The notes: generated by a model from the letters alone, not told the origin. Counted from the stretch's first letter, positions 13,445 through 60,900 are shown. The stretch is 64,000 nucleotides of DNA from Candidatus Moraniibacteriota bacterium (GCA_049303795.1 JBAQNM010000015.1:36590-100589); one strand, 5' to 3'. Made by a program: numbers and translations.

Positions 13445-13484
13445 TATCAATCCTCTACTTTATTAATAAAATAAAAATTAAGGA

Positions 13485-14141
13485 ATGAAAACTGAAATAA
13501 TTCAAGTGACAAAAAAAGATTTAATTTTTGCCACTTCTGCTGGTTTTTTAATTGGCCTGCTTCTCTTACCAGTTTTAAAAAGCTCCAATCAAAAACTCTA
13601 CGATCAATTATTCTTTGCCACAGTACCATTTTTTTTAATAGCAACCCCTCTTGGTTTAATCATTGCTCATAAAATCAGCAAAAAGATTGCTATTTTTTGG
13701 CAACTGGGAAAATTCGGTATATCTGGCGTGCTTAATGTTTTAGTTGATCTAGGAATGCTCTCTCTTTTAACTTTCTTTTTCAAGAGCACATTTCAAATTG
13801 AAGCAAAAAATGTTATCGTTTCAGGAATCTCTATTTTAACTTTTTATTCCTTATACAAAGCTATATCTTTTATAATTGCTAATATCAATAGTTATTTCTG
13901 GAACAAGCACTGGACTTTTAATAAGATTGGGGATAAAAAATCTGAATTTTTTCAATTTTTTGTTGTTAGCGTTGTTGGTTTTATGATAAACAACCTTGTT
14001 GCTTCTTTTGTTTTTAAATACATTCCTCCAGTCGCAGGAATGGATGATAATCAGTGGGGATTAATTGGCGCAGCTTTTGGTTCAATTATTGGACTAGCTT
14101 GGAATTTTATCGGCTATAAATTTATTGTTTTTAAAAAGTAG
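13485..14141 (+). CDS. GtrA-family membrane protein with an N-terminal extension
   Basis: Four to five TM helices. The GtrA-like motif NSYFWNKHWTF is present. Confidence 0.6.
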   Translation: MKTEIIQVTKKDLIFATSAGFLIGLLLLPVLKSSNQKLYDQLFFATVPFFLIATPLGLIIAHKISKKIAIFWQLGKFGISGVLNVLVDLGMLSLLTFFFKSTFQIEAKNVIVSGISILTFYSLYKAISFIIANINSYFWNKHWTFNKIGDKKSEFFQFFVVSVVGFMINNLVASFVFKYIPPVAGMDDNQWGLIGAAFGSIIGLAWNFIGYKFIVFKK

Positions 14142-14155
14142 CTATTTTTTCAACA

Positions 14156-14188
14156 AAAATCCTGTTAAAATCAGGATTTTTCTTTTTG
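14156..14188 (+). terminator. rho-independent terminator after the GtrA-like gene
   Basis: Hairpin AAAAATCCTG-TTAAAA-CAGGATTTTT followed by a T-run. Confidence 0.6.
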
Positions 14189-14226
14189 GAAAAATAGTGT
14201 TAGACTGATAATAAAGTTACAAAAAT

Positions 14227-37840: not shown

Positions 37841-38080
37841 AAAATCAAGACCCCACTGCTAGTTTCCCCATGAAAACTTATTTTGCTTGAAATCACCAGA
37901 AAAATGCTACTGATTCTTTTGGCGATATAGCCACTTGCTTTTTTCTTTATTCTGTATTAACCTGAATTCAGGCAGTTTTAAACAAAAAACTGCCAAAAAT
38001 ACAACAGAACCTTAACAAAAAGCATTGTGCTTTTTTTTGTTTTAGCCAACCAATACCCACATAATATCAGGAGGCGTTTT

Positions 38081-39367
38081 ATGCGAAATACTATTCTAGC
38101 GAAGCTAGAAAAAAGATTTTCCTTAACCTCCCCTATTAATATATGGATGAGGTTAGTAACAAAAATTGAAACAGAAGCTGGCAAGATGATTATATCTTGC
38201 CCAAACAACACCACCAAAAAAAGACTCGGGGCACTTTCCGAAGAGATCTGTTCCGCGCTTGACTTAAAAGAAATCAGTCTGGTTATTGCGGGTACCAGCG
38301 CTGAGGAAAATACAAAAACAGTCCCCGCTGGAGATCCACAGTTGCATCTTCCAATGCACATTTCCACAAAATCGCCAAGACTTAGACCAAATTTTAATTT
38401 TGCTAATTTTTTCGTTGGCAACTTTAATAGTGTAGCCTATCATTCGGCGATGGCTTTGATTGATGAAAAGCAAAAAGCAACGGCGCCTGTGTTCATTTTT
38501 TCCGAACCGGGACTTGGCAAGACCCATCTCGCGCAAGCAATTTGTGCGAGTAATCATTCGGCTTGCTACATAACTGCCCCTTTTCTTATGGACGAGGTAG
38601 TTTATGCCTGTAGTAACGGTGGCACTGGAAGCATAAGAAAAAGATTTGCAATAAACATTGACCTGCTTGTGGTCGATGAGGTTCAAAGCTTATCGGGAAA
38701 AAACAGAACTCAAGAAGAGCTGTGCTATATAACCGATACGATACTTGACCGAGGTAAAAAAATAATCTTTTTGGGAATGCTCTCGCCAGGTGAACTTTTA
38801 AGGATAAGCGACCCTCTTCTTTCTCGTTTTCAATCATCCACTATTTGCAGTATAACTAGGCCCGATCTTGAAGATAGATTCAACCTTATTCAAAAAAAGG
38901 CCTCTGTATCTGAGCAAGTGATTTCCGATGAAGTTATTGACATCTTGGCAAGAAGATTGAGCGGTGACGTAAGAGTTATTGAAGGCTGTATTACCAGCAT
39001 GTTAAATAAGGCCACTTTTTCAAGTAGACCAATTGATACTGTTTTGGCAGAGGAAATAATCGAACAATTTGCCTCCGCCAAGAAAAAAGATCCGGCCAGC
39101 GACATCCTGAAAGTTGTCACATCCAACTTCAATCTTAAGGAAAAAGATTTATTCTCAAAAAGCCGACAGAAAAAAACTGTAATGGCAAGACAAATCTGCA
39201 TGTTTTTCTTAAGAGAACAAACGAATATGTCGCTAAAAGCGATTGGAGAAATTTTCAATCGTGATCACGCGACAGTAGCATACGCTATAACGGAAGTTCA
39301 GGAGAAAATAAATCACCTCCCAAGTTTCCTAACAACTATCGCGATTCTTAGAAAACAAATCACATAA
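38081..39367 (+). CDS. dnaA: chromosomal replication initiator DnaA
   Basis: RBS AGGAGG then ATG 38081. AAA+ domain (Walker A GLGKTHL; LLVVDEVQ). C-terminal DnaA signature RDHATVAYA within the HTH domain. Confidence 0.85.
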   Translation: MRNTILAKLEKRFSLTSPINIWMRLVTKIETEAGKMIISCPNNTTKKRLGALSEEICSALDLKEISLVIAGTSAEENTKTVPAGDPQLHLPMHISTKSPRLRPNFNFANFFVGNFNSVAYHSAMALIDEKQKATAPVFIFSEPGLGKTHLAQAICASNHSACYITAPFLMDEVVYACSNGGTGSIRKRFAINIDLLVVDEVQSLSGKNRTQEELCYITDTILDRGKKIIFLGMLSPGELLRISDPLLSRFQSSTICSITRPDLEDRFNLIQKKASVSEQVISDEVIDILARRLSGDVRVIEGCITSMLNKATFSSRPIDTVLAEEIIEQFASAKKKDPASDILKVVTSNFNLKEKDLFSKSRQKKTVMARQICMFFLREQTNMSLKAIGEIFNRDHATVAYAITEVQEKINHLPSFLTTIAILRKQIT

Positions 39368-39545: not shown

Positions 39546-40166
39546 ATGGATTATTTCGAATTAATCAAGAAAAATGTCCCGATGTTTGCGAAGAATTTCC
39601 CTGGAGATATTAAAATCTCTCTCTTTGGAAGTAGAGCGCGGGAAGCGGTTGCGCCTCCACCACCGGATGATGAAGAATTCGATATCCTGAAAGGAGCATT
39701 TGAAAAAGCTCAAGATATCGACCTGCTTTTCGAAGTCAACGCTGAAACTTTCCTGCGCTATCAGCAAGAATGTCAAAATCACTCGCTCAATTTTTTCACT
39801 GACATTCCCCTCGATCCGCATGATTGTTTTTGGGAATACTTCTCCCCAAAAGAAATCAGACTTTCAGCAATTCTTAAAATAATCCGAATTAACGCGTCAA
39901 CGATGACAAAAATTTATGAGGCTTTCGATTATACTGGCGAGGTTGATATCATCATTCTCCCTTTTGGTTGGAGAAAAAACAAACAAATCATCCGGGCTAT
40001 CAACTCATATGACCGAGGTTTTTCCCGATCACTGAAAAAGGACGCTATATTGCTTTTCGAAAAAAACAAAGTGGAGTCGCCAACCCCTGTCTGCGCATGC
40101 GGTAATGGAGATAACTGTTGCAAAAACGGCGGGAAAATTCATGCCGACTGCAAATGCAAAAAATGA
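39546..40166 (+). CDS. hypothetical protein with a Cys-rich C-terminus
   Basis: 206 aa. The C-terminal segment is PVCACGNGDNCCKNGGKIHADCKCKK. Confidence 0.5.
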   Translation: MDYFELIKKNVPMFAKNFPGDIKISLFGSRAREAVAPPPPDDEEFDILKGAFEKAQDIDLLFEVNAETFLRYQQECQNHSLNFFTDIPLDPHDCFWEYFSPKEIRLSAILKIIRINASTMTKIYEAFDYTGEVDIIILPFGWRKNKQIIRAINSYDRGFSRSLKKDAILLFEKNKVESPTPVCACGNGDNCCKNGGKIHADCKCKK

Positions 40167-40266
40167 ACAGCTACGTAACTATCTGGCTAAAAAAACAACC
40201 GGGATGGACTCAAAAAGTCCATCCCGTTTTTATTTAATCAAAGTCAATTTTATTTTAAAATATTAA

Positions 40267-43200
40267 TTACGGGTTGCTAGCTGGATTTTTTCCGTTAATT
40301 TTTGCCTGAAAATCCATTAGCACCTCCACGGCGATTCGTTTAATTTCTTTATTATAATCATCGTTCTCCTTATTACTAGCTTTCTTGTCAGGCTTTTTTA
40401 TTTTATTAGTTTTCTTGAGAAAATCTTGAGTTAGGCCATCTACTTGTCGCATCGTTTCAAGCATTAAGTCCTTAAGACTAACATTTAATCTTATCGCCGT
40501 CTTTCGCAAAACATCTTCAGTGAATTTGTTTTCACTGATCATATCCATCATTTCTTTCGCCCCCTTATCAGCATTTAATTTTCGCTTTAATTCACCTTCA
40601 AACTCAAAAGGCTTTCCGGTAAGCTTAGAAAAAATTTCTTCCAAAGTTACTGTTAATTTTTCCGTGTTTTGCTTTTGCTTTGTCCACATGTGTCCGCGTA
40701 CACTAAATCCTTGGGAAAACATGTCCGGAGCCATCTTTTCTTGAGTGTATATTACAAAAGAATTGTCTTTTGGCGACCAGATAAGATAGGCGCCATAGCC
40801 TTTCGAAAAAACTGCCATTTGACTGGAACTGCCTTCTCCACTAATTTTAGGATACCACTTCCCTTTTTTACTCATTTTTCCAGTATCAATCAAGACCTTC
40901 CCAAAGCGATCATCGCCCGTATCAAAAACGAATTTGCCACATTCCTTGTTCTTTAAAAATCTTTCTCCATTTTCTATTTGATTTTGAATGTATTTTGCAA
41001 ATTCAGAAAGTGTTTCTGTCGTTCCTTTTTGTTGATTGGCGTAAGCGTACTTATCAAGATAGTCACTTGGAAGATCTGCCGCCGGATCCGTTCCGTTTCT
41101 AAAAAGTTCGATTATATCTTTGGTTTTCATTTTGTGTGACAAACCATACATATTCTTAGAATAATTTTGATAAACTTGTTTTATTTCAGCTTGTGTAAAA
41201 TTAAAATTATCAATTTTAGTGACAAATTCTACATATTTATCCAAATACGCTTCTTTTTTCAAAAGGCCCATTTCAACCAAAGTTTCATAGACGAGACTTG
41301 TAGCACAAGTTGTTCGATCAGATTCGTCTCCATGATGATCAAGAATCAAACGTTTACCGTCCTCCTCGGCAATAACCCCATGCTTCTTTTTTGAGGTATC
41401 CATAATCACACCGCTTTCTGAAATTTCTCCCGGCTTCACAAAATTAACTTTGTCCATATCCACTTTAATGCCCGCCAATTCCATAAGCTCCAAGCAAGAA
41501 TAGGCATCCAGATCTGCTTGCTTAACAATTTTTCCATTCACCTCTTTTCCGTGAATAGTCAACTCATCCCATAACTCACGCGTTAATGCCAAAAATTTTT
41601 GATCAGCTTCTTCAAGTGTTGGTGCGTTAAGATCCTCATATTTCTTAACCTTATAGATAGTATGCAAAGCCGCCGCACGCACCGGTGCATATTTTTTCTC
41701 TTTTTCCTTTAGCGCTTCAGCACGCCGATCATTTAAATTTTTTAGTGAAGTTAAAAAAGCCTTCAGATCTTCCTTTTTTGCCTTTTCCATCACTACTTCT
41801 TTTTCATCCTCCGCCACACTTGCCGGCTCTGCTTTGCCCAAAGTGGCCGCTGCTAATGCTGCTTTAACTTCTGCATCAAGCGCTCTTTCTCTTTCTTCGG
41901 CAGCAATTTGAGCTGCTAATTTTTCCGCCGATGATTCTGTTGGAGTTTTTTTCACTAGAGCCTCCAAAGGAGTTCTGACTTTCAATAGCAACATAGCCGC
42001 CCATGCAACTTTTTTACTTTTCATTTTATTAAATAACTCATCCTTTAGTGTTTTTTCTTTTAGAAAATCTTTCTGGATTTTTTCTTCCTTGATCTTTTGC
42101 AAATATTCATTAAGTTTCTGCTCGGTGTCGTAGGCTGTCGCCCAAGGCGCTTGAATATTTTTCTTCAAAAATACTTTTGCTTCAGCAACTGCAATATACA
42201 TTTCAGTTCTTTCCTGTTCAATATTTTTTGCATCTGAAAAGCCAATGAGATCAATTTTTTCTTGCTCGGAAAAAGTAATGCGAGATCCGATCTCATTAAT
42301 ATTCTCTAAAATTTCATGCATTTTTTGTTCGTCAGGATTGTGCTTTAATTTTTGCAAGCTTTTTCTTAGATTATCAGTAAGCTCAGTTGCACTTTTTGTT
42401 TCATATCTAAATCTTTCCATTTCCTCTCTTCTCTTTGATCCTTTTTCTATTACTTTTCCTTGAGCCATTTCTCGAGCATGTTGAGTGCGCTCCTCCTTGA
42501 TACGCCTATTTTCCTTCATCCCAGAGATAAGACTTCCGATACCAAGTCCAGCTCCAGCAGTAATTGGACTCAGCGCCCATTTTGCGAGTCCTTGAGTTAT
42601 ATTCACTGAACCCTTAGCCATTGCGCCTATAGCAATCGCCAAGGCAGAAACAATCACTGAATCTTTGACAAGTTTTCCGATAAATGATTTCTTTATTTTT
42701 TCCCTAATTTTATCTAACGCATTATGTTGTGGCTCTGTTTCAACTCCCATTTTCGCCCTTCCAATCACCACTTCAAAATCTCTATCAAGAGCATCCGATC
42801 CTTGTTTATGTGAAATATTATTTTTCACCTGCTTTGCTATTTCCAAAAGATTATCAGCAAAAACTAAATTATTTTTTTCTTTGGGTAAATAAATATTATA
42901 AAGTTTTCTCTTTTCTATTTGAAATTGTTCCTCAGTCAAATTCCCACCAGCAAAATTTTTAATAAGCTCGTTAACCTTATTTTTGATCTTAACATCAACA
43001 GGATCACTATTTTTTAAAGTATTTCTCTCTTCTCCTTTGCGCAACAAACTTTCAGATTCATATTCCGCCTCAAATCTCTTCACGATTGCCATCATCGCTT
43101 CTTTGTGGTCAGCCTTTTCACCATCCCCCGCTATAAGCGAATCACCTGCTAAGCGGATCTCTCTTTTGGCTTTAGCAATTTCTTTTTGGCGATAATAATC

Positions 43201-43398
43201 CTGCGCTAAATTATATTTCCAGATTTTTTTTAAAAAACCTTTAAAACCTTTTAACTCTGTCTTTGAAGACAACAATTTTTCTTCTGCAATATCACGAGCT
43301 TGTTTTTCAATGTCAACACTGGCAATAACAACGGTTTGTCTTTTTTCAATGGACGGCTGTTGAGGAAAGCTTGTTTTATTTTTATTATTTAATTCCAT
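40267..43398 (-). CDS. giant membrane protein (1043 aa): coiled-coil N-terminal region, Gly-rich TM hairpin, large C-terminal domain with DHH-like motifs
   Basis: Central hydrophobic Gly-rich helices (SVIVSALAIAIGAMAKGS...SPITAGAGLGIGSLISG). C-terminal region contains DLDAYSCLELMELAG and LILDHHGDESD, which resemble DHH phosphoesterase motifs I and III. The architecture parallels the ORF at 57985-61227. Confidence 0.6.
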   Translation of the reverse strand: MELNNKNKTSFPQQPSIEKRQTVVIASVDIEKQARDIAEEKLLSSKTELKGFKGFLKKIWKYNLAQDYYRQKEIAKAKREIRLAGDSLIAGDGEKADHKEAMMAIVKRFEAEYESESLLRKGEERNTLKNSDPVDVKIKNKVNELIKNFAGGNLTEEQFQIEKRKLYNIYLPKEKNNLVFADNLLEIAKQVKNNISHKQGSDALDRDFEVVIGRAKMGVETEPQHNALDKIREKIKKSFIGKLVKDSVIVSALAIAIGAMAKGSVNITQGLAKWALSPITAGAGLGIGSLISGMKENRRIKEERTQHAREMAQGKVIEKGSKRREEMERFRYETKSATELTDNLRKSLQKLKHNPDEQKMHEILENINEIGSRITFSEQEKIDLIGFSDAKNIEQERTEMYIAVAEAKVFLKKNIQAPWATAYDTEQKLNEYLQKIKEEKIQKDFLKEKTLKDELFNKMKSKKVAWAAMLLLKVRTPLEALVKKTPTESSAEKLAAQIAAEERERALDAEVKAALAAATLGKAEPASVAEDEKEVVMEKAKKEDLKAFLTSLKNLNDRRAEALKEKEKKYAPVRAAALHTIYKVKKYEDLNAPTLEEADQKFLALTRELWDELTIHGKEVNGKIVKQADLDAYSCLELMELAGIKVDMDKVNFVKPGEISESGVIMDTSKKKHGVIAEEDGKRLILDHHGDESDRTTCATSLVYETLVEMGLLKKEAYLDKYVEFVTKIDNFNFTQAEIKQVYQNYSKNMYGLSHKMKTKDIIELFRNGTDPAADLPSDYLDKYAYANQQKGTTETLSEFAKYIQNQIENGERFLKNKECGKFVFDTGDDRFGKVLIDTGKMSKKGKWYPKISGEGSSSQMAVFSKGYGAYLIWSPKDNSFVIYTQEKMAPDMFSQGFSVRGHMWTKQKQNTEKLTVTLEEIFSKLTGKPFEFEGELKRKLNADKGAKEMMDMISENKFTEDVLRKTAIRLNVSLKDLMLETMRQVDGLTQDFLKKTNKIKKPDKKASNKENDDYNKEIKRIAVEVLMDFQAKINGKNPASNP

Positions 43399-43400
43399 TT

Positions 43401-43730
43401 TTATAGATTCAGATAAATGTTTCTAAAATTAACCAACGACTGAGCTATAGCTTCATCAAGATTTAAAATATTACTTTGACAAAAAGCTTGAATTCTTCCT
43501 GTATCAGCAACATCCAAAAGAGCAGAAAATTCCTCTAATTTTTCAGGTGGCATATTTTCCAATATTGTTGCATTGATCCTATCTTCAACCCTTTCCGCTA
43601 AATCCTTTTTAATCTGATCCATAATCTCCGGATCAAGATTTTGAAAGTTTTTTTCTACAATCAATTGATTGATAAAGTCATCGATTGCTTGTGATTGATT
43701 CGCCATATTTTTACATTTAAAAATTTTCAA
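43401..43730 (-). CDS. small acidic helical protein; paralog of 57620-57952
   Basis: 109 aa immediately upstream of the giant protein on the same strand. Its pattern LDPEIMDQIKKDLAERVEDRINATILENMPPEKLEEFSALLD parallels SLPKDKQEELLIRMTEVLLKRIFVETMEKLNDADREAYEKMID in its paralog. Confidence 0.5.
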   Translation of the reverse strand: MKIFKCKNMANQSQAIDDFINQLIVEKNFQNLDPEIMDQIKKDLAERVEDRINATILENMPPEKLEEFSALLDVADTGRIQAFCQSNILNLDEAIAQSLVNFRNIYLNL

Positions 43731-43780
43731 CTTTCCTATAATAAAATTATACTTCTAATTTATTCTTTAATCAAATAATT

Positions 43781-43822
43781 AAAATAAAAATCAGACTCCC
43801 CCGGGTCTGATTCTTGTTTTTA
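43781..43822. terminator. bidirectional hairpin terminator
   Basis: AATCAGAC-TCCCCCGG-GTCTGATT flanked by an A-run and a T-run. It serves the SPFH gene on the minus strand. Confidence 0.55.
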
Positions 43823-43852: not shown

Positions 43853-44938
43853 TTACTCGCCGATGCCTTTAAATAGCGGCATACCACTTGAAGGATTTAC
43901 TGGAACATAAATTGTTCCTTGGCGATCTTTTAGTTCCTTGATATAGAGATAATTCAAGTATTCGCTGCTTAGACTTTCATTGATAATTTTTTGTGCATCT
44001 CTCTGTCCTTCTGCTTCAATTCTTTTTCTATCAGCCTCTTTTCTTTCTTTTTCCAAAACAAAGTCATAACGTTGTGCTTCTTGTTCGGAAGCTAATTTTT
44101 CCTGAATGGCTTTGGCAAGGCTTTGTGGAAGTTGCACATTGCGAATCACTGCCTCTTCGATAATAATTCCTCTTGATTCAACTTTCTCTTTTAGGTTAGA
44201 AAATATTTTACTAGAGGCCTCCTGTCTTTTTTCTGAATATAATTCCTTAGCATCATATTGTGAGACAACATCCCGAATGATTCCTCGGATTTCAGGACGA
44301 ATAATCTTTTCAACATAGTCCAATCCGACTTCACGATAAATGTCTGAAGCTTTGGACTCTTCTAAGCGATATAGAGCAGTAAAATCAATACTGACGTCCA
44401 AGCCTTCCTTAGTTAGTGATAAAATTGAATCATCCCCTTTTCTTTGTCCTTCAGCAGAGGCAATACTCATCGTATATTGTTCAGTTCGAATATTCATCAA
44501 TGTAATTTTGGCCAAGGGATTAACAAGATGAATCCCTGATCGTAATTCTTCGTCATTGACTTTTCCAAAAAGTGAATAAACGCCAGTTTCTCCAGCATCA
44601 ATAACTATAACGAATCTGAAAAAGATCCAGATGACAACTATTAATAACAATCCTATTTTACCAATTCTCCAAAACCAACTCGCCTTTCGACCTAAGTCAC
44701 TTAGATCAGGTGCCTGATTAACCATATTATTTTTATTAAATAAATTATTTATAAAACTTAAAAATGTTTCATTCTTGGAAATCTTTTTTCGAAACAAGAC
44801 CACTGCAATAACAATCAAAATTAAAAAACCACCATATCCAAACATGCTGAATATAATCGGAAGTCCAACAGCTATAAAAATAATTGCTGGTGCAAGATAT
44901 TTTGAATTTATACTTTTATTAGGATTAAGCATTTGCAA
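43853..44938 (-). CDS. SPFH/band-7 (HflK/C, prohibitin-like) membrane protein
   Basis: N-terminal TM segments followed by a band-7 core (VYSLFGKVNDEELRSGIHLVNPL...ALYRLEESKASDIY...) and a C-terminal coiled coil. Confidence 0.8.
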   Translation of the reverse strand: MQMLNPNKSINSKYLAPAIIFIAVGLPIIFSMFGYGGFLILIVIAVVLFRKKISKNETFLSFINNLFNKNNMVNQAPDLSDLGRKASWFWRIGKIGLLLIVVIWIFFRFVIVIDAGETGVYSLFGKVNDEELRSGIHLVNPLAKITLMNIRTEQYTMSIASAEGQRKGDDSILSLTKEGLDVSIDFTALYRLEESKASDIYREVGLDYVEKIIRPEIRGIIRDVVSQYDAKELYSEKRQEASSKIFSNLKEKVESRGIIIEEAVIRNVQLPQSLAKAIQEKLASEQEAQRYDFVLEKERKEADRKRIEAEGQRDAQKIINESLSSEYLNYLYIKELKDRQGTIYVPVNPSSGMPLFKGIGE

Positions 44939-50712: not shown

Positions 50713-53286
50713 ATGCTAAAATTAAACCATTATATAGATACTCCTATGTCAAGAAAAAAACCCGACAAAAAAACACAACTTTTGAAACCAGAATTTCAAA
50801 ATATTTTAATTTGTAAGAAAAAAGAGCACCGCCCGTTCCTAGAGATTCTTATTGAAGAACCAGAAAATATCTCAAGAAAAAACCTAGGTGTCCTTGTTGG
50901 AATTTTTCAAATCAATGATTATTCTGAAGACTCCTCCTATATTGTAAACTACCTTATTTCGGTTATAAAAAAGGAGTATTTTTCTCATATTAATCACGGA
51001 TCAGTGGAAAATTTCGAAGCAGCTCTACATAAAGCTAATCTCGCCCTGGCAAAATTAGCTTCTCATGAAAATATTGACTGGATTGGTAATCTTAATGCTG
51101 TTTGTGCTGTAATCGAAAAAAATAATATCCTAATTTCTCAGACTGGAACAGCATCTGTCTTTCTACTACGCAAAACAAACTTTATTGAAATAACTGAAAG
51201 CACCCAAGAGCAATCTGAAATAAGTCCGCTCAAAACTTTTCAGGATGTAATATCGGGAAAGATAGAAAAAGATGATAAGATTATTTTTACGACAAAAGAA
51301 ATTTTTGAGCTTTTTTCCTTAGAAGAAATAAAAAGAAGCGCACTTAAATTCTCCCAAGATAATTTCATTCAATTTCTCAATACCGCTCTTATCAACGAAC
51401 TTGATCAAGTAGCGACATTAATTGTGGATGTTTTTGAACAGGAAGATCCAAGTGTCATGGCCTCTGCGCCAACAAAAAAAACACCCCAAATTAATGCTTT
51501 CAGTCAAACGACATTTAGAAAAAAAGAAGCCCCGCGTCAAACATTAAAAGAATCAGAAGAAATACCACCCGTAACCATTCTCAACCAAAACGAAACAACA
51601 GCGAAATCCAAAGAGAAGGAGGATTTTATTGATAAAAAAAATGGTCACATCTACATGAAGGAAGAGCTTGATTCAGAGGGAAAATCTGAAGAAAAAACGC
51701 CTTTGATTGATTTTTCTTTATTGTGGAATAATTTTATTACTTCCTCCTCTACTTTTGGAAAGAGTGCTAAAAAACAAATGACGATTATTGGAAAATCAAT
51801 CGCAATGCCAATATTATCCGTTAAAGCTAATACGAGAAAATACATAATAGCATCAACCAGAAATATTAAGGCAATCCCTGCTAAACTTAAAAAGAAAAAA
51901 GAAAGAACGCCTGATGAATTAGAAGCAATGGTTTTGAATAATTTAAGAAAAGAAGCAGCAAGCCAGCTAATAGAAAAACCAATTATTGACAATAACGAAC
52001 TGACAGAATCACTCCCGCCTAAAACATCAATCTATTTAAAGACAATTCAAACATATAATGACTACATTCCTAAGTTTAACAAAAAGTTTGCCTGGCTTTG
52101 GGAGGGATTTATTGACATTTCTGTTATTGTTTTACATCAACCAGTTAAAGGTTTTTTCGCTATTAAAGCTTTCCTCGAAGAGAAAAAACAGAGAGAAAAA
52201 ATAGAAAAAACTCCTGTTACTTTCGAAGAGAAGTTGAGCGAGAAAGATATTGAAGCTTTTTTTTCAAAGGATACTATCGCAACGTCTTCAATTGAAAAAG
52301 ATGTAGAAAAAAATTGGCTTCTCAAAGCAAAACAGGTCCTTCCTGATTTTTCCAGACTTAAGGATTTCGGAAATAAATTCAATTCCAAGCAAAAACTATC
52401 GGCCATCCTGATTCTATTCATGCTTTTGATAGTCCCCTATTGGATAGCAAAATGGGCGAATAAAACAACTGAGGAAAAAACAATTCCGATTGTTGAAACA
52501 GCGCCTATTGCAATATTACCGTTAGAAAAAGATAAAAATGTCATAAGATTAGAAAATTTAAATGAATTATATTCCGGAGAAAATATTCAAAACATAATCA
52601 ATCTCAAAAGCAAGTTGCTTGTTATCAAATCTGATTCCATTATCAATCTTGAGACACAAAAAAACATTCCAATTCCAGCTGATTTTAAAAATCCAGACTC
52701 ATCCTTCATCATGCAAGATTTAAATACTATCTTTCTTATTAAAAACAACCAACTATCAGGGTTCACTCCATCCAACGAAAAATTTGCAACCAATAATCTT
52801 GCTTTTCCAACTAGTGACAAAATAACTGATATTAAAACTTATCTCACCTATCTCTACATTTTAGATAAAAATAATAATCAAATTTATCGCTACCCAAAAA
52901 CTGAAGGCGGATTTAATGATAAATCAGCTTGGATCAGTGAAAATATCGATTTATCCAATTCCAGCAGTATGACTATAAACCAAAGTATTTTTGTCATTAA
53001 TAATAATGAGATCATTAAGTTTTTTTCCCATAAAAGAATGCCTTTTTCAATAGAAGAAACTGCCACGCCAATCATGCTGAGTAAAATATTCACCGCACAA
53101 GACATAACAAATTTATATATTCTTGATAATAAGAATTCAAGAATAATCAAATTAGATGCTGATGGAAATATAGTGGCTCAATATTACAATGAAAAAATTG
53201 CTACTGCTAATGTTTTTTCTGTATCAGAAGAAAATAATTTGATCTATATTTCAAATGGGAATGGGGTGGAAAGTTTTAATATGTAG
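50713..53286 (+). CDS. large hypothetical protein (857 aa) with a central TM helix
   Basis: Long ORF with a Lys/Glu-rich middle and one clear TM (LSAILILFMLLIVPYWIAKWA). The C-terminal ~350 aa has a beta-rich composition. Confidence 0.55.
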   Translation: MLKLNHYIDTPMSRKKPDKKTQLLKPEFQNILICKKKEHRPFLEILIEEPENISRKNLGVLVGIFQINDYSEDSSYIVNYLISVIKKEYFSHINHGSVENFEAALHKANLALAKLASHENIDWIGNLNAVCAVIEKNNILISQTGTASVFLLRKTNFIEITESTQEQSEISPLKTFQDVISGKIEKDDKIIFTTKEIFELFSLEEIKRSALKFSQDNFIQFLNTALINELDQVATLIVDVFEQEDPSVMASAPTKKTPQINAFSQTTFRKKEAPRQTLKESEEIPPVTILNQNETTAKSKEKEDFIDKKNGHIYMKEELDSEGKSEEKTPLIDFSLLWNNFITSSSTFGKSAKKQMTIIGKSIAMPILSVKANTRKYIIASTRNIKAIPAKLKKKKERTPDELEAMVLNNLRKEAASQLIEKPIIDNNELTESLPPKTSIYLKTIQTYNDYIPKFNKKFAWLWEGFIDISVIVLHQPVKGFFAIKAFLEEKKQREKIEKTPVTFEEKLSEKDIEAFFSKDTIATSSIEKDVEKNWLLKAKQVLPDFSRLKDFGNKFNSKQKLSAILILFMLLIVPYWIAKWANKTTEEKTIPIVETAPIAILPLEKDKNVIRLENLNELYSGENIQNIINLKSKLLVIKSDSIINLETQKNIPIPADFKNPDSSFIMQDLNTIFLIKNNQLSGFTPSNEKFATNNLAFPTSDKITDIKTYLTYLYILDKNNNQIYRYPKTEGGFNDKSAWISENIDLSNSSSMTINQSIFVINNNEIIKFFSHKRMPFSIEETATPIMLSKIFTAQDITNLYILDNKNSRIIKLDADGNIVAQYYNEKIATANVFSVSEENNLIYISNGNGVESFNM

Positions 53287-53361: not shown

Positions 53362-53736
53362 TTATTGTAGTTTTTCCATTGCTGCTGCTTTTTCTAATTC
53401 ATCCTTCTCTGCTGAAATCTCCCTATAAGCCTGATCTGAATCATTTTTAACACCATCGATCTCTTTTCCAAAAGTTTCTTCTGCACTTTTCAGGCTATCT
53501 ACCAAAATTTGCTTCTCTGCCTGAACCTCGGGAGAGTCCGCATCCAAAGTGACATCTTCGCCTTTGAAAGTATCCTCGATTTCTGCTTGCAAGGCATCAT
53601 CAACTAAATCTAGGGCCTCAGTTTCAGTTTTTTCTCCACTTTTTATTTCCTCAATTAATTGAGCTTTTTTTTCACCATCAAGCTCTTCAATTTCCCCTAT
53701 TTGCCTAACAATATCTTCTATATTTTGATTTTCCAT
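53362..53736 (-). CDS. hypothetical small acidic protein
   Basis: 124-aa ORF, D/E-rich and helical. Last gene of the minus-strand cluster. Confidence 0.45.
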   Translation of the reverse strand: MENQNIEDIVRQIGEIEELDGEKKAQLIEEIKSGEKTETEALDLVDDALQAEIEDTFKGEDVTLDADSPEVQAEKQILVDSLKSAEETFGKEIDGVKNDSDQAYREISAEKDELEKAAAMEKLQ

Positions 53737-53793: not shown

Positions 53794-54483
53794 TTAGTTA
53801 GCACCACCAAGCGCCGCTATCTTAGCTCTAATTTCTGCTTGTTTTGCCATAAGTTTGTTGATTTTCTCCTGCTTTTTGCTATCTTTAGATCTCAATTTTT
53901 CCATTCTTCTGTTATTAATGAAATCGCGAAACCTTCCCTTTGCTGCATTCATTTTAGAAACTAAATTATCATAAGCTTCCGAACCTCTCTCTGCTAGTTC
54001 ATTGTATTTTTCACTTGCCTTATTTGTTAATATTTTTGCGCCTTCTACTGTCTTAGATGTCACGAAAGAACCTGCTTCTACTGTAGCCATTCCCGCAGCT
54101 AATCCCGCTTCTCCAACGGCTCTCGCCCCTCTACCGGCAGCATCAACACCACTTGTAATAATTTCACCAGCTTTATTTTTTACCACATTTGCCCCTTCAA
54201 CCGTTTTGGAAACTACCAATGCTCCCGCTTCCATACTAGCTGTCCCAACAGCCTGTGCTGCTCTGCTAGAAGCCTCTGGTAACGCTAGCATCTTAAACAT
54301 TCCTTTTTTAATGCCACCCCATGTTTTACTGGCAGCTTCCGCAATAGCAGCAGCTCTCTTTTCTCCTATTGACTCTAGACTCTCTTGACTTTCAGGTTTT
54401 TGTTGAGCCTCAACATTTTCCCCTACAGGACTCACTTTTTCTGTTTTTGAACCGGAACCGCCACCATCTGGACTTTTAAACAT
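53794..54483 (-). CDS. hypothetical protein with an internal ~45-aa duplication
   Basis: RAAQAVGTASMEAGALVVSKTVEGANVVKNKAGE and RGARAVGEAGLAAGMATVEAGSFVTSKTVEGAKILTNKASE. Confidence 0.5.
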   Translation of the reverse strand: MFKSPDGGGSGSKTEKVSPVGENVEAQQKPESQESLESIGEKRAAAIAEAASKTWGGIKKGMFKMLALPEASSRAAQAVGTASMEAGALVVSKTVEGANVVKNKAGEIITSGVDAAGRGARAVGEAGLAAGMATVEAGSFVTSKTVEGAKILTNKASEKYNELAERGSEAYDNLVSKMNAAKGRFRDFINNRRMEKLRSKDSKKQEKINKLMAKQAEIRAKIAALGGAN

Positions 54484-54644: not shown

Positions 54645-57110
54645 TTACAATCTTGTTCTCGCAATAATTTCCTGATTGACAATGTGTCTATCTCGACCGT
54701 ATGTTAGGCGGGATAATTCTTTTATCGCATTGGCAATTTCTTGACTGCCCTTAGTTGGAGCGAAGCCTTCAATATTAAACGGTTTCGTCAAAACACCATT
54801 AATCAAAACCTTGGCGAAGCCTTTATGGTTATCCACATTCACCAGATCATTACGAGTGAATACTGGCGCGACTTGTTTTTCCAAAAATTCCGCATCCTCC
54901 GGACCAACACGATATAGAATCATTGAGCCAATATTACCGAATACCGCTTTCGAAATTTCTTCTTTGAGCTGAGCTATAAATTGATGAGCAATATTAAGAC
55001 AAAGTCGATATTTTCGCGCTTCTGATAAAATTTGAGCGATAGAATTAGTAGTTACATTTTGAAATTCATCAAGATAGAGATAAAAATCAACACGATCATT
55101 TTCCGCGATATTAGTCCGCCCCAATGCTGCCATCAATATTTTACCTACGATCACCATACCGAGAAGTCTTGCGTTAATTTCACCAATTTTTCCCTTGGAA
55201 AGAGCAACTAGAAGAATTTTTTTATTATCCATTATTTCGCGAAAATTGATTGTACTCTTTTGTTGCGAAATAATTGGGCGCATCATGTCATTGGAAATAA
55301 AGGGCGTCAGCTTGGAAGTAATATAAGGCACCATATTAGCTAATGCTGCATCTCCTCCAGCTTTTTCAGCTTCTTTTGTCCAAAAATCAACCACTGTTTG
55401 ATTAGTGCATTTGGAAATTTTCATTGCACGAAATTCTTCATCCGCCAACACTTTAGAAATTTCCATTAAAGTTGAACCTGACTCAGGATCACTCATGACA
55501 AGAAACATAGCATTTCGCATATATTGCTCAAACATCGGTCCTCCAGTTGCCTTCAAATCATATAATTGATCAAAAATACCAATCATCTCATTAATCACGA
55601 AAGTCATTTGCTCCGGATGCTCAGGGTCATATTCCATCATATTAAGACCGAAAGGACGCTCAACATCAGACGGATCAAAAAAGACTACGTCTTGCGCTCT
55701 TTCCTTAGGAATTGAAGCTAGAATATCTTCAATTGCATCCCCATGGGGATCAATAAAGCAAAAACCTCGTCCCTCACGCGCATCTTGTTTAGCCATTTCT
55801 TGTAAAATAGTAGTCTTTCCAGTTCCAGTTTGACCAATTGCGTAAAGATGCCTTCTTCGATCACTTTCTGTCAAACGAATATCTGTTTTTACTCCACGAT
55901 ACTCATTAAAGCCAATTAGAATCCCCTCATTTGGAATCCCAACTGGAGGTGGTGCAGCATTAGCCTTGAGCCACTTAATTTTTGGCGCCTCAGTTGTAGA
56001 TATCGGAATATGAAAAATACTAGCTATTTCCTCTACCCCTAAAATCATCCCTTCTTCTGGTTTAAAATTACGGAAAATAAAATCATAGGCTGTTATTTGA
56101 TTATTACCTCTTTTGACCTTAAAGCAGTTAATGTCACCGTTTTCATATTGTGAAAAAGCATTTTCCAGATGCGATAAAATTTCTTGTGCTCGCTCGCTGG
56201 TAGCAGCTGATGCGACTAAGCGGATATTAGTTTCAAATCCTGTCTTTGAAGCTTTTTTCTCAATGCCCTTGACTAACTCTTGTTCTTCGGGGGTTAGCTG
56301 AACAGTCTTGTTTTTATCCATACCACTCTCGTCTTTTTTACCTGAAGACAACATTGTTGAAAAAACCTCACCGATTCCATCGAATACGTGAGCTCCAAAA
56401 GATTTATCCGCATCTTCAAGTCTTTTTCCTTGTTGCATCTTGTGTGCGATCTTTTTTCCCTCACTACGCCAAAGCGTTCCAGCTGGCTTGATAATCAACT
56501 GAATCCCGGCTCCCTCCGTTTCATTTTCTAGTTTACTAATTGCATTAGCGATAGCGTTAAGCGGATCCATTTTTTGGCTTTCATATGTACGAATCGGAAG
56601 TGCAGGCTTATTTTTAAGTTTAATTATCGACGTTACGGTTTTACTGCCAGGAGAAAAAATGTTGTAATCAGCTGCTCTTTCCAAAGAAGCATATGGAAAA
56701 AAACTATTAATCTGTTTTTCAATATTTTCTCTATACTTTTTTGGCACAGCAATAAAAAAAATAATCTCCTCGCTTTTTGATGGCTTTGCAATTTCTAAAG
56801 AAATACACGGAGAACCATACATTAATTTTTTGAAAAAACTATGCGTATCCTTAATAGATGAAAAAGCCGTCAACATTTGCTCCATCGCACCAATTTCACC
56901 CTTCCAAGACTCACCGTCCTTGCTTTTTTCTTCTTCTGATTTATTAAGCTTGGATACTCTAATTACATCTAAATCAAGGTTCATTGATTGGTTAATTTGA
57001 GCACGGAAACCAAGAAAACTAGAAATTATCATCCAGATTCCACTGATAAAAGTTAAAATACCAGAGACAATAAGGCAAATATTAATCAAGGGGGAGAGAT
57101 CTATATTCAT
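54645..57110 (-). CDS. membrane-anchored P-loop ATPase of the VirD4/TraG/TraD (type IV coupling protein-like) family
   Basis: N-terminal TM helix. Walker A HLYAIGQTGTGKTT, then FIDPHGD, Walker B YLYLDEFQN followed by IAHQFIAQL. The order and spacing of these motifs is what is seen in T4CP/FtsK-HerA-type ATPases. Confidence 0.65.
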   Translation of the reverse strand: MNIDLSPLINICLIVSGILTFISGIWMIISSFLGFRAQINQSMNLDLDVIRVSKLNKSEEEKSKDGESWKGEIGAMEQMLTAFSSIKDTHSFFKKLMYGSPCISLEIAKPSKSEEIIFFIAVPKKYRENIEKQINSFFPYASLERAADYNIFSPGSKTVTSIIKLKNKPALPIRTYESQKMDPLNAIANAISKLENETEGAGIQLIIKPAGTLWRSEGKKIAHKMQQGKRLEDADKSFGAHVFDGIGEVFSTMLSSGKKDESGMDKNKTVQLTPEEQELVKGIEKKASKTGFETNIRLVASAATSERAQEILSHLENAFSQYENGDINCFKVKRGNNQITAYDFIFRNFKPEEGMILGVEEIASIFHIPISTTEAPKIKWLKANAAPPPVGIPNEGILIGFNEYRGVKTDIRLTESDRRRHLYAIGQTGTGKTTILQEMAKQDAREGRGFCFIDPHGDAIEDILASIPKERAQDVVFFDPSDVERPFGLNMMEYDPEHPEQMTFVINEMIGIFDQLYDLKATGGPMFEQYMRNAMFLVMSDPESGSTLMEISKVLADEEFRAMKISKCTNQTVVDFWTKEAEKAGGDAALANMVPYITSKLTPFISNDMMRPIISQQKSTINFREIMDNKKILLVALSKGKIGEINARLLGMVIVGKILMAALGRTNIAENDRVDFYLYLDEFQNVTTNSIAQILSEARKYRLCLNIAHQFIAQLKEEISKAVFGNIGSMILYRVGPEDAEFLEKQVAPVFTRNDLVNVDNHKGFAKVLINGVLTKPFNIEGFAPTKGSQEIANAIKELSRLTYGRDRHIVNQEIIARTRL

Positions 57111-57154: not shown

Positions 57155-57598
57155 CTATATTTCAGTAATCAAACCTTTTCTAACTAAGGCATCATGTAAA
57201 TCATCCGCCAATAAACGATCATGTAACTCGTCTAATAAATAATTGTCTTCCAAGTGTTGAGCGACTTTCACTGCATGTGCAACGCCTTTTGTTTCAGCTA
57301 GCTGTACTAAGTGTGTGATTTTACTTTCATAATCAAGTTTGTCATTTGCCAATTTTGCATCATCAGAAACATCGTCATGAGCAATTGCTGTTGAACTTTT
57401 TACTTTGGACAAAATCCTATTATAGGCGTCGTCCTTTTCCATTGAACCCTCTAATCTTTCTTTGGTCTCCGGGGCATTAGATATTTTTTCAAGCTCCGTC
57501 TGATTTAATGTGCCATCAGTTTCAATATTTTCTTTTCTATCCAAGCCACCTCCAAACTTAGCTTTCAAATTCAATTCTTCATCGATTGGTTCCAACAT
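57155..57598 (-). CDS. hypothetical acidic protein
   Basis: 147-aa ORF tightly packed between the ATPase and the 110-aa gene. Confidence 0.5.
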   Translation of the reverse strand: MLEPIDEELNLKAKFGGGLDRKENIETDGTLNQTELEKISNAPETKERLEGSMEKDDAYNRILSKVKSSTAIAHDDVSDDAKLANDKLDYESKITHLVQLAETKGVAHAVKVAQHLEDNYLLDELHDRLLADDLHDALVRKGLITEI

Positions 57599-57619: not shown

Positions 57620-57952
57620 TTATTCCACATTCTTCATTTCTTCTTTAAATTCAACAATGATTTTCTGCACCATTTCATCATAATTATACACCTTTTCTTT
57701 TAAAAATGCACCGATTTTTTCAGGATCCATATTTTCATCTATCATTTTTTCATAAGCTTCACGATCGGCATCGTTCAATTTCTCCATCGTTTCAACGAAA
57801 ATCCTCTTTAAAAGCACCTCTGTCATTCTAATTAGCAGCTCTTCTTGTTTATCTTTTGGCAAACTTGAAAGTCCTAATTCTTCAATCAATTCTTTTTGCA
57901 TTTGCAATTGTTTCTCATCTAATTCATCATCTTGATCATTTTGATTGGTCAT
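57620..57952 (-). CDS. small acidic helical protein; paralog of 43401-43730
   Basis: 110 aa. See the shared pattern under 43401-43730. Confidence 0.5.
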   Translation of the reverse strand: MTNQNDQDDELDEKQLQMQKELIEELGLSSLPKDKQEELLIRMTEVLLKRIFVETMEKLNDADREAYEKMIDENMDPEKIGAFLKEKVYNYDEMVQKIIVEFKEEMKNVE

Positions 57953-57984: not shown

Positions 57985-60900
57985 CTAAGCCGTCACTTTT
58001 CTACTTGAAAAAAGTTTAGTAACTCTGGCAACCCAATGCAACATATCTTCCCTATTACCATTGATATTTCCGCCTTCCGTATTGCCAATTCTTGCTTCAT
58101 CTCCCAGAAGATGAACGAAATCAGCTTCTATATTTTTTATTTTTTCAGCTAAAGCTGCATTAACAATTCCATTTTCCCTAGTTGATTCATAGGTTATTTC
58201 CCAAATTCTCCTATTTTTTATTATATCCCAGTTTTTAGGATCACCTAGCGACAATTCTACCATTAAATTCTTTCCAAAAGCTACTTCCTTAGTCATAAAA
58301 GAAGTTGCTTCGACATCATATTTCTCAAGTATTCCGATTGATTTTGAATCTAAATTATCATAGCCAGAATTTGACTGTTCCAAAGATTCAGTCTCAGCAG
58401 GTGTAACGTCTGATTCAACAGGAGCGACAGTTGCAGCTCCTTCTGCGCTATTCAAAGAATCATTTCCGGTTGATGCCGGCTTATTTTCAATATTTTTTTC
58501 CGTATCCAGCGGAGCAGGAGTGGCTTCTTTGGGAGCTGAAATTTCACTATCTGGCGTTTCAGAATCTGCGACATCAATATCTGGATTTCCAATTTCTCCA
58601 TCCATACCCGATTCAACCGCATTATCCGCACTTAAAATTTCAGGCTTTAAGTTTTCAGAGGTATTTTTGATAATTTCTTCCACCTTAGCTGGGGTCAGTG
58701 GTTGATCCGGGTTATCAATCCTCCAGCTAGCTATTTTGGCATTATTTTCAGTAATATTTTTCAACTCTTCGGGATTTAAACTTTCAGCTTGATAGAATGC
58801 ATCTGTAATATCAGAATCGTCCTCAAACAAACTGGACAGGTCGACTTCTTGACCAACATTAATTTCATCAACATTTTCCAATCCAAAACTGCTTGGATCA
58901 TTCGCCACTTTATCTTTCAATGCGTCTATAATATGGGCTTGTATGGCTGGATCGAGTTTGGAAAATCCCTCATAACGCCCTTGCAGTTGCCTATCAATCA
59001 TCTTCCAAACTGAATCGCCTTTTCCGACAATCTCAACGCCCTTAATATTTTCAACTGGCGAATTCGTGTCAAAACCTTTTTCAAAAGCATCCCCAGAGGC
59101 AATAGTCGAACTAGGTCCTGCTTCAGTTTCAAGATCCACTGACAACTCAGGAACTTTTTCTGAATAAATTTCAGAACTAGCGCCAACAGGAATCTCATGA
59201 TTATCTGAAGGAATTTCTGGATTAACCGGACTAACATTCGCATGCTCTGTTAAATTAATTGGTTTACCAATTTCTTCTAGTGAATCATTTCCCACTGAAA
59301 AGTTAGGGTCATACAAAGGAATTGTTGAATTGGTTGGTGGAAGATCAAATCCGGAGTCAGACGGAACCTTAGAGGCGTCCTTGAATAAATTATGAAAAAA
59401 TTCCTTCTTCCTTGCTAAATCAGCAGCTTTATCGGGTCTAAGACCAGAATCACTGCCTGCAGAATCAACGCTAGCATCAGATCCAGGGGAAACATCTGGA
59501 TTAGCATTTGCGTCGCTAGTTAAATCAACTGGCTTGCCGATTTCTTCCAAATGAGTATTTTCTGGTGAAACATCCGGATTAGCATTTGCGTGCTCCGCTA
59601 AATCCACTGGCTTGCCGATAGTCTCCAAGTGAGAACCAGGCAAGGGAACATCAACACTATTTCCAGTTGGAATTTCTGCGCTATTAAAATGACTGAAGAG
59701 GTAGGAGCCAGATCCAACAAGAATACCCGCTGTTATGCCAAAAAGCCTCCTGCTTCTCGCCTTATCCTTTTCCGTTTTTAAACCTTTAGCATATCCGTTA
59801 ATCTCCTCTTGCATTAATTCCTTCATTGCTTCATATTTTGCTTCCGGATTATTTATACTTTCAACATTTCTAATGATTTCTGCTTGTTTTTTTTGTCTTT
59901 CTGCTCCTTCTTTTTTTCTATATCTGACTTCAAGCGCTCCAGTTATACCAGCCCCAGCCATCAATCCAGATAAACCTCTTTTCATGAGTTTAGCGACTCC
60001 TACGGCACTGGCGAGACCAGTGGCACCTGCGAATCCAGCAGTGCCAGCGATGCCAACCGCCACACCAGCAGAAAGAAGCCCAACAGAAGCCAGCATTTTC
60101 AGCTTCCAATCCAATTTTCTATATCCATTAACAAACTTCTCGCTTTTTTTTGCTAGATAGTTAGGCAACTTATATTTATTCTCCCATGCCTCTGTCTTTG
60201 CATTAGTTCGCGCTTCAATAAGATTCATTTGCTCACTTTCGTTATAATACTTTGCCAAAACTTCCATTTTTTCAGTCAGTTCCGTTGGAGAAAGACTTTC
60301 TTTTTTAAGTTCTTTTATTTGATGATCAAGAAGATCTTTAAGTGCATCTTTATAATTGGCGAAATAAATTTTAGATTCTTGAGAAATTTGCTGATTAGGA
60401 CGAAAAAATCTTCCCAAAGTATTTTTTATTCCAGTAATAGCATTTGTCAGTTCATAGTCTTTTTTAGCATAGAGACCTCTCGCTATTTCAACTGCCGTCA
60501 TAAGATCTGCCTCTCGCTCCTTTCCATCAATGCCAGCATATTTCAGGTCTGCTGGAACAACATCCACTACCTCGGGAATGATTACTTCGGCGTTCTTACT
60601 AGTTTCCGGCTTAGCTTCAAAAATTTCCCGCAACGTCATTGTTCCGTCTTGCACACCTTTAACTAGATTCTCAAATTCCTCCACGCTTTCAATAGTCCTT
60701 TCCTCGAATCCACCACCCGGCAATTTAATACTAATTTCGACTATTCCAGTATTTTCTGAATAATCCTTAACAAAAAAAGCATCGCCATTCTTATCAAAAA
60801 CTCTATCATCCGGAGCTTTTTTCAAACCAAGACTATTGCATTTTTCAAAAAATTCTTTTTTACTTATAACACCTTCCTTTTTTACTTCCTCCTTGCTTCT

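Follow-up and report, generated by a model that had tools for sequence, protein, structure and literature searches.

A predicted membrane-tethered DHH-type phosphoesterase and its DUF5663 partner in a Candidatus Moraniibacteriota chromosome

A stretch of 64 000 nt from the genome of a Candidatus Moraniibacteriota bacterium (GCA_049303795.1 JBAQNM010000015.1:36590-100589), referred to below as the window, encodes two giant proteins, g1 and g2, each next to a gene for a small acidic protein, s1 and s2, respectively. The locus raises two questions: what is the function of g1, and do the two gene pairs belong to one system? A reading of the sequence alone (the original prediction) had proposed that the pairs are paralogous modules and that g1 may be a phosphoesterase of the DHH family. 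We favour, with moderate confidence, the conclusion that g1 is a DHH phosphoesterase acting on nucleotides or oligonucleotides, tethered to the cytoplasmic face of the membrane, and part of a machine that is specific to the Candidate Phyla Radiation (CPR, or Patescibacteria) and linked to an ATPase resembling type IV coupling proteins (T4CPs).

The four open reading frames (ORFs) lie where they had been predicted, and the DLD and DHH motifs quoted for g1 are real (table 1). The structure of the C-terminal region (g1 residues 560–1043, 484 aa) was modelled with AlphaFold2 (AF2), with a predicted local distance difference test score (pLDDT) of 89.7 and a predicted template modelling score (pTM) of 0.85. 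The model has the DHH fold that had been expected. In a Foldseek comparison with the PDB, the top six matches all belong to the DHH family, and no other fold appears below E=0.1. The matches include the pGpG phosphodiesterase PggH (7d62, E 5e-5), Bacillus NrnA (5j21), Staphylococcus aureus NrnA/Pde2 (8iu7), SH1221 (3dev) and a family II pyrophosphatase (2eb0). The Foldseek probability is 0.95–1.00 for PggH, NrnA, Pde2 and SH1221, and the alignments span 333–372 columns. They are full-length and, with the AF2 model, give the arrangement of a DHH fold, a linker and a second alpha/beta domain. The C-terminal helical bundle that follows is duplicated in longer homologues, where the hidden Markov model (HMM) finds a second match at profile positions 388–477.

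The catalytic motifs are strictly conserved. Alignment A1 covers the C-terminal region in 20 sequences (domain numbering + 559 gives g1 numbering), and eight positions are invariant in all 20: H57, D70, D72, D108, D128, H129, H130 and D171. The A1 profile, searched against 1.84 billion cluster representatives, matches 531 proteins at E<=1e-3, of which 269 reach <=1e-30. In the distant domains the counts are 142/144 for D70, 144/144 for D72 and 138/144 for H57, and the motif II Asp, the DHH triplet and the motif IV Asp are retained in 137–145 of about 145; across the best ~145 distant domains, conservation at the eight catalytic positions is 95–100 per cent. Motif I of the shorter homologues reads H-E-K-P-D-L-D-A-x-S-C, which is the canonical NrnA/RecJ pattern H-x-x-P-D-x-D-A-x-G-S, and motifs I–IV align collinearly and in register with a canonical CPR RecJ (locus L101). 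Two of 10 stand-alone relatives have Pfam DHH matches at the correct profile positions, both sub-threshold (13.8 and 12.2 bits against a cut-off of 28.1).

The ratio of non-synonymous to synonymous substitution rates (dN/dS) was calculated between g1 and P0001, a 70 per cent identical orthologue from an independent assembly. It is 0.15 overall, 0.24 in the C-terminal helical region and 0.11–0.17 in all other domains (0.11 in the DHH domain), which indicates purifying selection throughout g1. On the basis of the eight-position conservation and the dN/dS of 0.11, a working active site is predicted, and the C-terminal region probably represents a genuine, active and very divergent clade of the DHH/DHHA1 type. 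The clade comprises more than 500 clusters at 50 per cent identity that are missed by Pfam, NCBIfam and GenBank annotation.

All 82 homologues of g1 come from CPR lineages, and the modules belong to large CPR-specific families, as the original prediction of an expanded lineage-specific family had supposed. Residues 1–470 (the N-module) are common to all 82 homologues, residues 560–1043 only to the 19 closest. The AF2 model of the N-module (pLDDT 79, pTM 0.77) shows an alpha/beta globular part, a poorly modelled hairpin and long charged helices; the low pLDDT of the hairpin is as expected for a membrane segment. No neighbour of the N-module was found by Foldseek in the PDB or BFVD. The N-module profile (475 positions, built from 82 sequences) gives a full-length match to g1 with 575 bits, and a homologue search with this profile returned nine short proteins only.

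In most homologues, the hairpin is followed by a third transmembrane (TM) helix (...KMKKRKVA-GLGIGLVVG-QE...), a conserved middle domain of about 300 aa and a variable C-terminal head. In g1 an Ala/Glu/Lys-rich linker stands at this place, and the loss of the third TM helix and the middle domain is common to g1 and P0001. The lost middle domain, seen for example in P0002, P0040, P0042 and P0060 (residues ~490–850), has no Pfam match and carries the motif W.DNDTP.PD.NELK.WWGG..GTG.D..GNY.F ... PIDADG..IDPNSE.GK. The heads found on N-module homologues are DHH-like, glycosyltransferase (GT9 or GT2) or Ser/Thr kinase domains. Because both flanks of the g1 hairpin are rich in Lys/Arg and the third TM helix is absent, the positive-inside rule predicts that the DHH head of g1 lies on the cytoplasmic membrane face; this is the weakest step in our reading. 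A cytoplasmic location is likewise implied for the DHH-like domain of the giants in loci L062, L110 and L111, where this domain precedes the membrane module.

Both small proteins pass the gathering score of the Pfam family DUF5663 (PF18908), with 27.5 bits for s1 and 36.2 for s2 against 23.7, and both are acidic (isoelectric points 4.47 and 4.42). Their shared pattern is thus confirmed as homology, and the direct BLASTP match between them is weak (E 1e-4 over 46 residues). When aligned with partners from other loci, the DUF5663 proteins fall into two subtypes. Subtype A, which includes s1, is marked by the motifs EDRINA...LPPEKLEEF...FC...LD...FR.xYL, and subtype B, which includes s2, by EELGL...LP...Q...LL.RMTE...LKR. 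The DUF5663 profile gave chance-level matches only against PDB sequences, and similarity to known chaperones was not detected in that search. In the literature searched we found no mention of DUF5663 or DUF8128, a region of the ATPase considered below, and no paper on DHH proteins in Patescibacteria.

The pairing of DUF5663 with an N-module giant is strict. A synteny search with a subtype-A query, restricted to one genome per species, returned 20 CPR genome loci, and in 20/20 the DUF5663 gene lies directly upstream of the giant on the same strand. These loci span six CPR lineages (Moraniibacteriota, Parcubacteria/Paceibacteria, Shapirobacteria, Saccharibacteria and Nomurabacteria). The same arrangement is found in L001, L003, L005 and L028, and loci such as L017 and L022 place the gene pair in Saccharibacteria. 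In the window, the listed s1 ORF (43401-43730, minus strand) begins with TTG at 43730 and has 109 aa. The start is more likely the ATG at 43706, which gives 101 aa, as in the orthologue, whose partner gene is called at 101 aa and begins MTNQ. The s1 stop and the g1 ATG are separated by 2 nt. Since a terminator-like hairpin and then a promoter-like site precede s1, the gap between the genes is so short and a strong terminator-like hairpin follows g1, the pair looks like a self-contained bicistronic operon.

The order of genes in the second module is different: the giant g2 comes first, followed by s2, a gene for a 147-aa protein (p147) and the T4CP-like ATPase. With 27.0 bits for TrwB_AAD_bind (cut-off 20.5) and 27.3 for TraG-D_C (cut-off 22), the ATPase passes both Pfam thresholds, and its best PDB relatives are DotL and TrwB. 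Its NCBIfam matches, to TraD/VirD4-like proteins and to the DNA-translocating ATPase CedD, are weak and far below cut-off. DUF8128 is recorded on an orthologue of the ATPase. Among the ORFs of the window that were scanned, there are no genes for type IV secretion system (T4SS) channel components (VirB4, VirB6), no relaxase gene and no competence genes. The absence of a channel gene near the ATPase agrees with a published survey in which most patescibacterial t4cp genes lie far from virB4: of 5713 VirD4-like T4CP homologues in Patescibacteria only 148 were near virB4, and their role was left open, with exaptation suggested (PMC12102498).

The linkage of these genes recurs outside the window. 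We recovered 80 metagenomic loci with relatives of the ATPase, 44 of which have at least 5 kb of upstream sequence. Within these 44, a p147 homologue is present in 35, a giant with a g2-type core in 25, DUF5663 in 24, and the giant together with DUF5663 in 22. The complete order of the window (giant, DUF5663, p147, ATPase) is repeated in L027, and L062 differs in that its giant combines an N-terminal DHH-like domain with the g2 core. These comparisons identify the second module as a conserved operon and, since homologues precede the ATPase in 35/44 related loci, p147 as a conserved but undescribed component of it. DHH-like genes are also found within or beside the ATPase operon in L030 and L043. 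In L110 and L111, a single operon encodes, in this order, DUF5663, a giant with a DHH-like domain and an N-module, a small protein and the ATPase, and L006 combines an N-module giant with DUF5663-A and the ATPase. In L005 a stand-alone DHH-like gene, DUF5663-A, an N-module giant with a kinase head, a g2-like giant and DUF5663-B lie side by side. We regard this wider operon linkage, which is established as synteny only, as the more interesting finding.

Proteins with a HopA1 domain, named after a type III effector of plant pathogens, adjoin DUF5663-giant modules in two unrelated CPR loci (L005 550-3750 and L109 12485-13957), and part of the L005 protein is similar to a stretch in the C-terminal half of g2 (E 1.6e-12). 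A DUF5663-giant(GT9) module in L003 has an AbiEi/AbiEii toxin–antitoxin pair 1 kb downstream (13050-14412); this proximity is probably coincidental.

The paralogy of the two modules was borne out for the small proteins only. The giants have in common a pre-hairpin region, the Gly/Ala hairpin, a basic stretch, a DUF5663 partner and fusion partners. The architecture described in the original prediction therefore stands as regards hairpin and basic stretch; the supposed coiled-coil N-terminus is a globular alpha/beta structure in the AF2 model, and the C-terminal regions are unrelated. In g2 the hairpin (~376–435) and basic stretch are followed by a third TM helix (495–513), absent from g1, and by a repeat-containing region rich in Pro, Ser and Asp. 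A BLASTP comparison of g1 with g2 gave E=2.6, and the g1 N-module HMM does not match g2 (-9.4 bits). The hhalign probability is unstable with alignment depth (47.8% with three sequences, 85.1% with four and 10.2% with 31); with four g2 sequences the score is 51.6, whereas 20 column shuffles reached no more than 27.4. Sequence homology of g1 and g2 is not demonstrable from these comparisons, and paralogy is not claimed. Direct search of 5.8 billion proteins found only three homologues of g2, and iterative search in the ATPase loci found 35 core relatives. Of the 54 DHH-like representatives with 900 aa or more, 22 are fused to a hairpin module, which is the g1-type N-module in 14 and the g2-type core in eight. 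The acidic, Pro/Ser-rich C-terminal half of g2, a fast-evolving protein, contains a 78-nt tandem repeat (59489-59652, about two copies, 77–85% matches) encoding HLE(E/T)IGKPVDL..ANANPDVSP.

Table 1. Features of the two modules in the window. Residue numbers are those of g1.
Feature	Coordinates	Strand	Description
g1	40267-43398	(-)	Intact 1043-aa ORF, multidomain membrane protein; NCBI MFZ2193036.1, GenBank 'hypothetical protein'
g1 N-module	41989-43398	(-)	Residues 1-470; alpha/beta globular part, hydrophobic hairpin, charged helical part; CPR-specific
Gly/Ala-rich hydrophobic hairpin	42517-42672	(-)	Residues 243-294; Lys/Arg-rich flanks on both sides (hydropathy, charge counts)
Ala/Glu/Lys-rich linker	41722-41988	(-)	Residues 471-559
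DHH catalytic domain	41077-41574	(-)	Residues ~609-774
Upstream His616	41551-41553	(-)	DHH metal ligand
Motif I, D629-L-D631	41506-41514	(-)	DxD
Motif II, D667	41398-41400	(-)	
Motif III, D687-H688-H689	41332-41340	(-)	DHH
Motif IV, D730	41209-41211	(-)	
Second, DHHA1-like alpha/beta domain	40612-41049	(-)	Residues ~784-929; conserved DTG, G833-K834, W874, R901-G-H-M904
C-terminal helical bundle	40270-40596	(-)	Residues ~935-1043; AF2 helices at model positions 376-476
s1	43401-43706	(-)	DUF5663 subtype A, small acidic helical; 101 aa from ATG at 43706 (probable start)
Promoter-like site	43746-43774	(-)	TTGATT, 17-nt spacer, TATAAT; just upstream of s1; consensus match only
Terminator-like hairpin	43786-43815		Between SPFH gene 3' end and s1 promoter-like site
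Bidirectional terminator-like hairpin	40200-40226		12-bp stem, 7 G-C pairs, T-runs on both strands; between g1 and convergent 206-aa gene
g2	57985-61227	(-)	1080-aa acidic membrane protein
s2	57620-57952	(-)	110 aa, DUF5663 subtype B, small acidic
p147	57155-57598	(-)	147-aa acidic protein between s2 and ATPase; no known family
T4CP-like ATPase	54645-57110	(-)	821 aa; N-terminal TM, DUF8128 region, Walker A GQTGTGKTT, TrwB/TraG-type domains

The window belongs to the ordinary chromosome of a metagenome-assembled genome with low GC (~35%) and carries the genes dnaA, smc, dnaX, obg, rplJ/L, rpsP and rlmN, and a mobile-element origin was rejected because of this housekeeping content. A known defence system was also rejected, since Pfam, NCBIfam and PADLOC searches of g1, g2, s1, s2 and p147 gave nothing beyond DUF5663. 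Directly upstream of s1 on the same strand lies a gene for an SPFH/Band-7 membrane protein (43853-44938, minus strand, Pfam E 3.5e-30), a neighbour that is not kept in other loci. The dnaA gene (38027-39367, plus strand) is found some 900 bp past the 3' end of g1; T4SS-related genes have been reported in a published survey to cluster near dnaA in Patescibacteria. Between dnaA and g1, convergent with the latter, lies a 206-aa gene (39546-40166, plus strand) whose product matches nucleotidyltransferases weakly and has a Cys-rich tail (CACGNGDNCCKNGGKIHADCKCKK). Divergent from g2 is a gene for a PMT_2-family (dolichyl-phosphate-mannose-type) glycosyltransferase (61423-63270, plus strand), also kept as a neighbour in L027. 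Near the ATPase operon are an 857-aa ORF (50713-53286, plus strand) and two smaller ORFs (53362-53736 and 53794-54483, minus strand) without Pfam matches; L027 has counterparts of similar size at the same place.

These data can be combined in the following mechanism. The CPR-specific N-module of about 470 aa would anchor g1 in the membrane through its Gly/Ala hairpin, and the linker, presumably flexible, would join it to a divergent two-metal phosphoesterase of the DHH/DHHA1 type. Since g1 lacks the third TM helix found in the longer relatives, its enzyme head would be held at the cytoplasmic membrane face. There it most likely works as a hydrolase of phosphoester bonds in nucleotides or short oligonucleotides, like NrnA, PggH or GdpP; we infer this activity and substrate class from sequence and model. 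The small protein s1 would bind g1 as an obligate partner of the N-module, either as adaptor or as chaperone. The s1–g1 pair would represent one form of a system found across the CPR, in which hairpin-anchored giants with exchangeable enzyme heads act together with DUF5663 proteins and an orphan VirD4/TrwB-like ATPase. The pair may cooperate with this ATPase, which in the window would be the one encoded in the second module.

Several observations weigh against parts of this reading. At the level of sequence, g1 has no match to Pfam PF01368 (DHH) at E<=1, so that the Pfam search suggested along with the original prediction did not recover the family; nor is there an NCBIfam match. Searches of PDB sequences with g1 and with the profile of its C-terminal domain gave no DHH match, and hhalign of the domain family against the CPR RecJ is insignificant (probability <1%). 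The second domain lacks the GGGH motif and has no PF02272 match. The equivalent stretch is R-G-H-M in g1, with T, H, N, R or K at the third position across the family. Because GGGH is the substrate-binding motif, the way in which NrnA or GdpP binds its substrate cannot be assumed for g1; its specificity has probably changed, and we read the substrate pocket as remodelled. As regards location, the DHH-like head of the long homologues follows the third TM helix and would by the positive-inside rule lie outside the cell, which conflicts with a fixed cytoplasmic position. The GT9, GT2 and kinase heads of sister proteins indicate that use of the membrane module is not restricted to nucleotide chemistry. 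Finally, the ATPase is adjacent in 0/20 subtype-A loci (it is 4.5 kb away in one), and the s1–g1 operon is 11 kb from the ATPase operon in the window. In view of the fold and active-site conservation on the one hand, and of the sequence-family thresholds it falls below and the missing GGGH on the other, we file the g1 domain as a variant of the DHH/DHHA1 kind and not as a member of NrnA, GdpP or RecJ.

In one alternative the giants would be polymorphic effectors or secretion cargo, in which the conserved N-terminal module serves for targeting and the enzymatic heads vary, and DUF5663 would be a small acidic chaperone or adaptor, as IcmS/IcmW are for DotL or the Lap partners for LXG toxins. Export of the giants, or their insertion where the cell touches its host bacterium, would fall to the T4CP-like ATPase, and the DHH head could there destroy host nucleotide signals. 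The variable heads on a conserved N-module, the ever-adjacent small acidic partner, the operon linkage with a DotL/TrwB-like ATPase and the HopA1-domain neighbours in L005 and L109 all suit such a model, as does the third TM helix of most homologues, which would leave the head extracellular; patescibacterial T4CPs are, moreover, mostly orphan and suspected to be exapted (PMC12102498). However, the window contains no secretion signal or channel component (VirB4, VirB6) and no immunity-like gene pattern, and epibiotic growth is reported not to require the Saccharibacteria t4cp homologue (PMC12102498). A cytoplasmic DHH head is predicted for g1, L062, L110 and L111, and DUF5663 has no detectable similarity to known chaperones. 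On balance we consider this alternative unlikely.

T4CPs are established as DNA-translocation motors, and the ATPase could instead be a DNA or RNA translocase, the tethered DHH head being a RecJ/NrnA-like exonuclease that degrades the translocated strands to nucleotides, for salvage in an organism unable to synthesize them. RecJ and nanoRNases belong to the DHH family, and all fold matches of g1 are nucleotide or oligonucleotide enzymes. The joint operon of DHH-like giant and ATPase in L110 and L111, and the weak similarity of the ATPase to TraD, VirD4 and CedD, are consistent with this view. We nevertheless give it little credence: searches of g1 revealed neither a RecJ OB-fold nor a DNA-binding domain, the neighbourhood is without competence or relaxase genes, and glycosyltransferase or kinase heads on sister giants do not fit a nuclease machine.

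GdpP is a membrane-anchored DHH/DHHA1 enzyme, and g1 might similarly be a second-messenger phosphodiesterase that degrades c-di-AMP (or pApA/pGpG), in which case the DUF5663 and ATPase context would be incidental. That the best fold match is the pGpG-specific PggH, followed by the dinucleotide-cleaving NrnA and Pde2, is compatible with this role, which appears very doubtful to us, as g1 has neither a detectable PAS or GGDEF domain nor GGGH, the window has no diadenylate cyclase gene, and the domain occurs in more than 500 clusters, fused to a wide range of unrelated architectures, which is unlike a housekeeping enzyme of signal turnover. A mere structural resemblance, with a pseudoenzyme or binding module on a giant that serves as membrane scaffold, would account for the failure of all sequence-profile methods and the missing GGGH, but is highly improbable given eight metal-ligand or catalytic positions conserved at 95–100 per cent in ~145 highly diverged domains and a dN/dS of 0.11.

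The membrane-tethered phosphoesterase thus remains our preferred reading of g1. CPR bacteria are obligate epibionts in whose genomes unannotated membrane proteins predominate, and they are nucleotide scavengers; the new clade adds candidate nucleotide-processing enzymes to organisms that depend on such scavenging. DUF5663 and DUF8128 gain a context, the former as the small member of a strict pair with a giant, repeatedly co-operonic with the VirD4-like ATPase. It is possible, and we propose it tentatively, that DUF5663, the two kinds of giant, p147 and the DUF8128 VirD4-like ATPase constitute an undescribed CPR-wide membrane machine with interchangeable heads, including the new DHH clade, for coupling-protein-driven export or insertion or for nucleic-acid translocation. 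If so, it would explain the thousands of 'orphan' T4CP genes of Patescibacteria that lie far from a type IV secretion channel. The operon linkage supplies candidates for the target of T4CP exaptation, and a testable hypothesis for the role left open in the earlier survey (PMC12102498).

Five known systems resemble the one described here in some respects. In the type VIIb LXG/Lap systems, small helical partner genes lie upstream of toxins with a conserved N-terminal module and a polymorphic C-terminal enzyme, and the ATPase belongs to the FtsK/HerA superfamily. The likeness is an analogy of gene logic only, drawn from field knowledge: there is no relationship of sequence or fold, the N-module has membrane segments, and the heads are not typical toxins. 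DotL with IcmS/IcmW/LvgA also unites a VirD4/TrwB/DotL-like membrane ATPase with acidic proteins of ~100–150 aa and large candidate clients. However, DUF5663 and p147 have no homology to IcmS or IcmW, T4SS channel genes are not nearby, and the ATPase has a DUF8128 region. RecJ shares with g1 the DHH superfamily and, in L101, the collinear motifs; the L101 RecJ, used as a control, has Pfam matches to DHH, DHHA1 and RecJ_OB, and g1 to none of the three. GdpP likewise carries a DHH/DHHA1 head, presumably cytoplasmic, on N-terminal hydrophobic helices, but g1 is without PAS or degenerate GGDEF domains (Pfam) and without GGGH, and has a much larger anchor (470 aa) of no known fold and an obligate small partner gene. 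In comparison with NrnA, PggH and Pde2, which stand alone, g1 is fused to the 470-aa membrane module and paired with DUF5663, is extended by additional helices on the N-terminal side and by a helical bundle at the C-terminus, and carries R-G-[H/N/T]-M in place of GGGH; identity is 10–13 per cent, below every sequence-family threshold. These enzymes are nonetheless the best and only significant structural neighbours of g1, with which they share the DHH and second alpha/beta domains and motifs I–IV with the upstream His.

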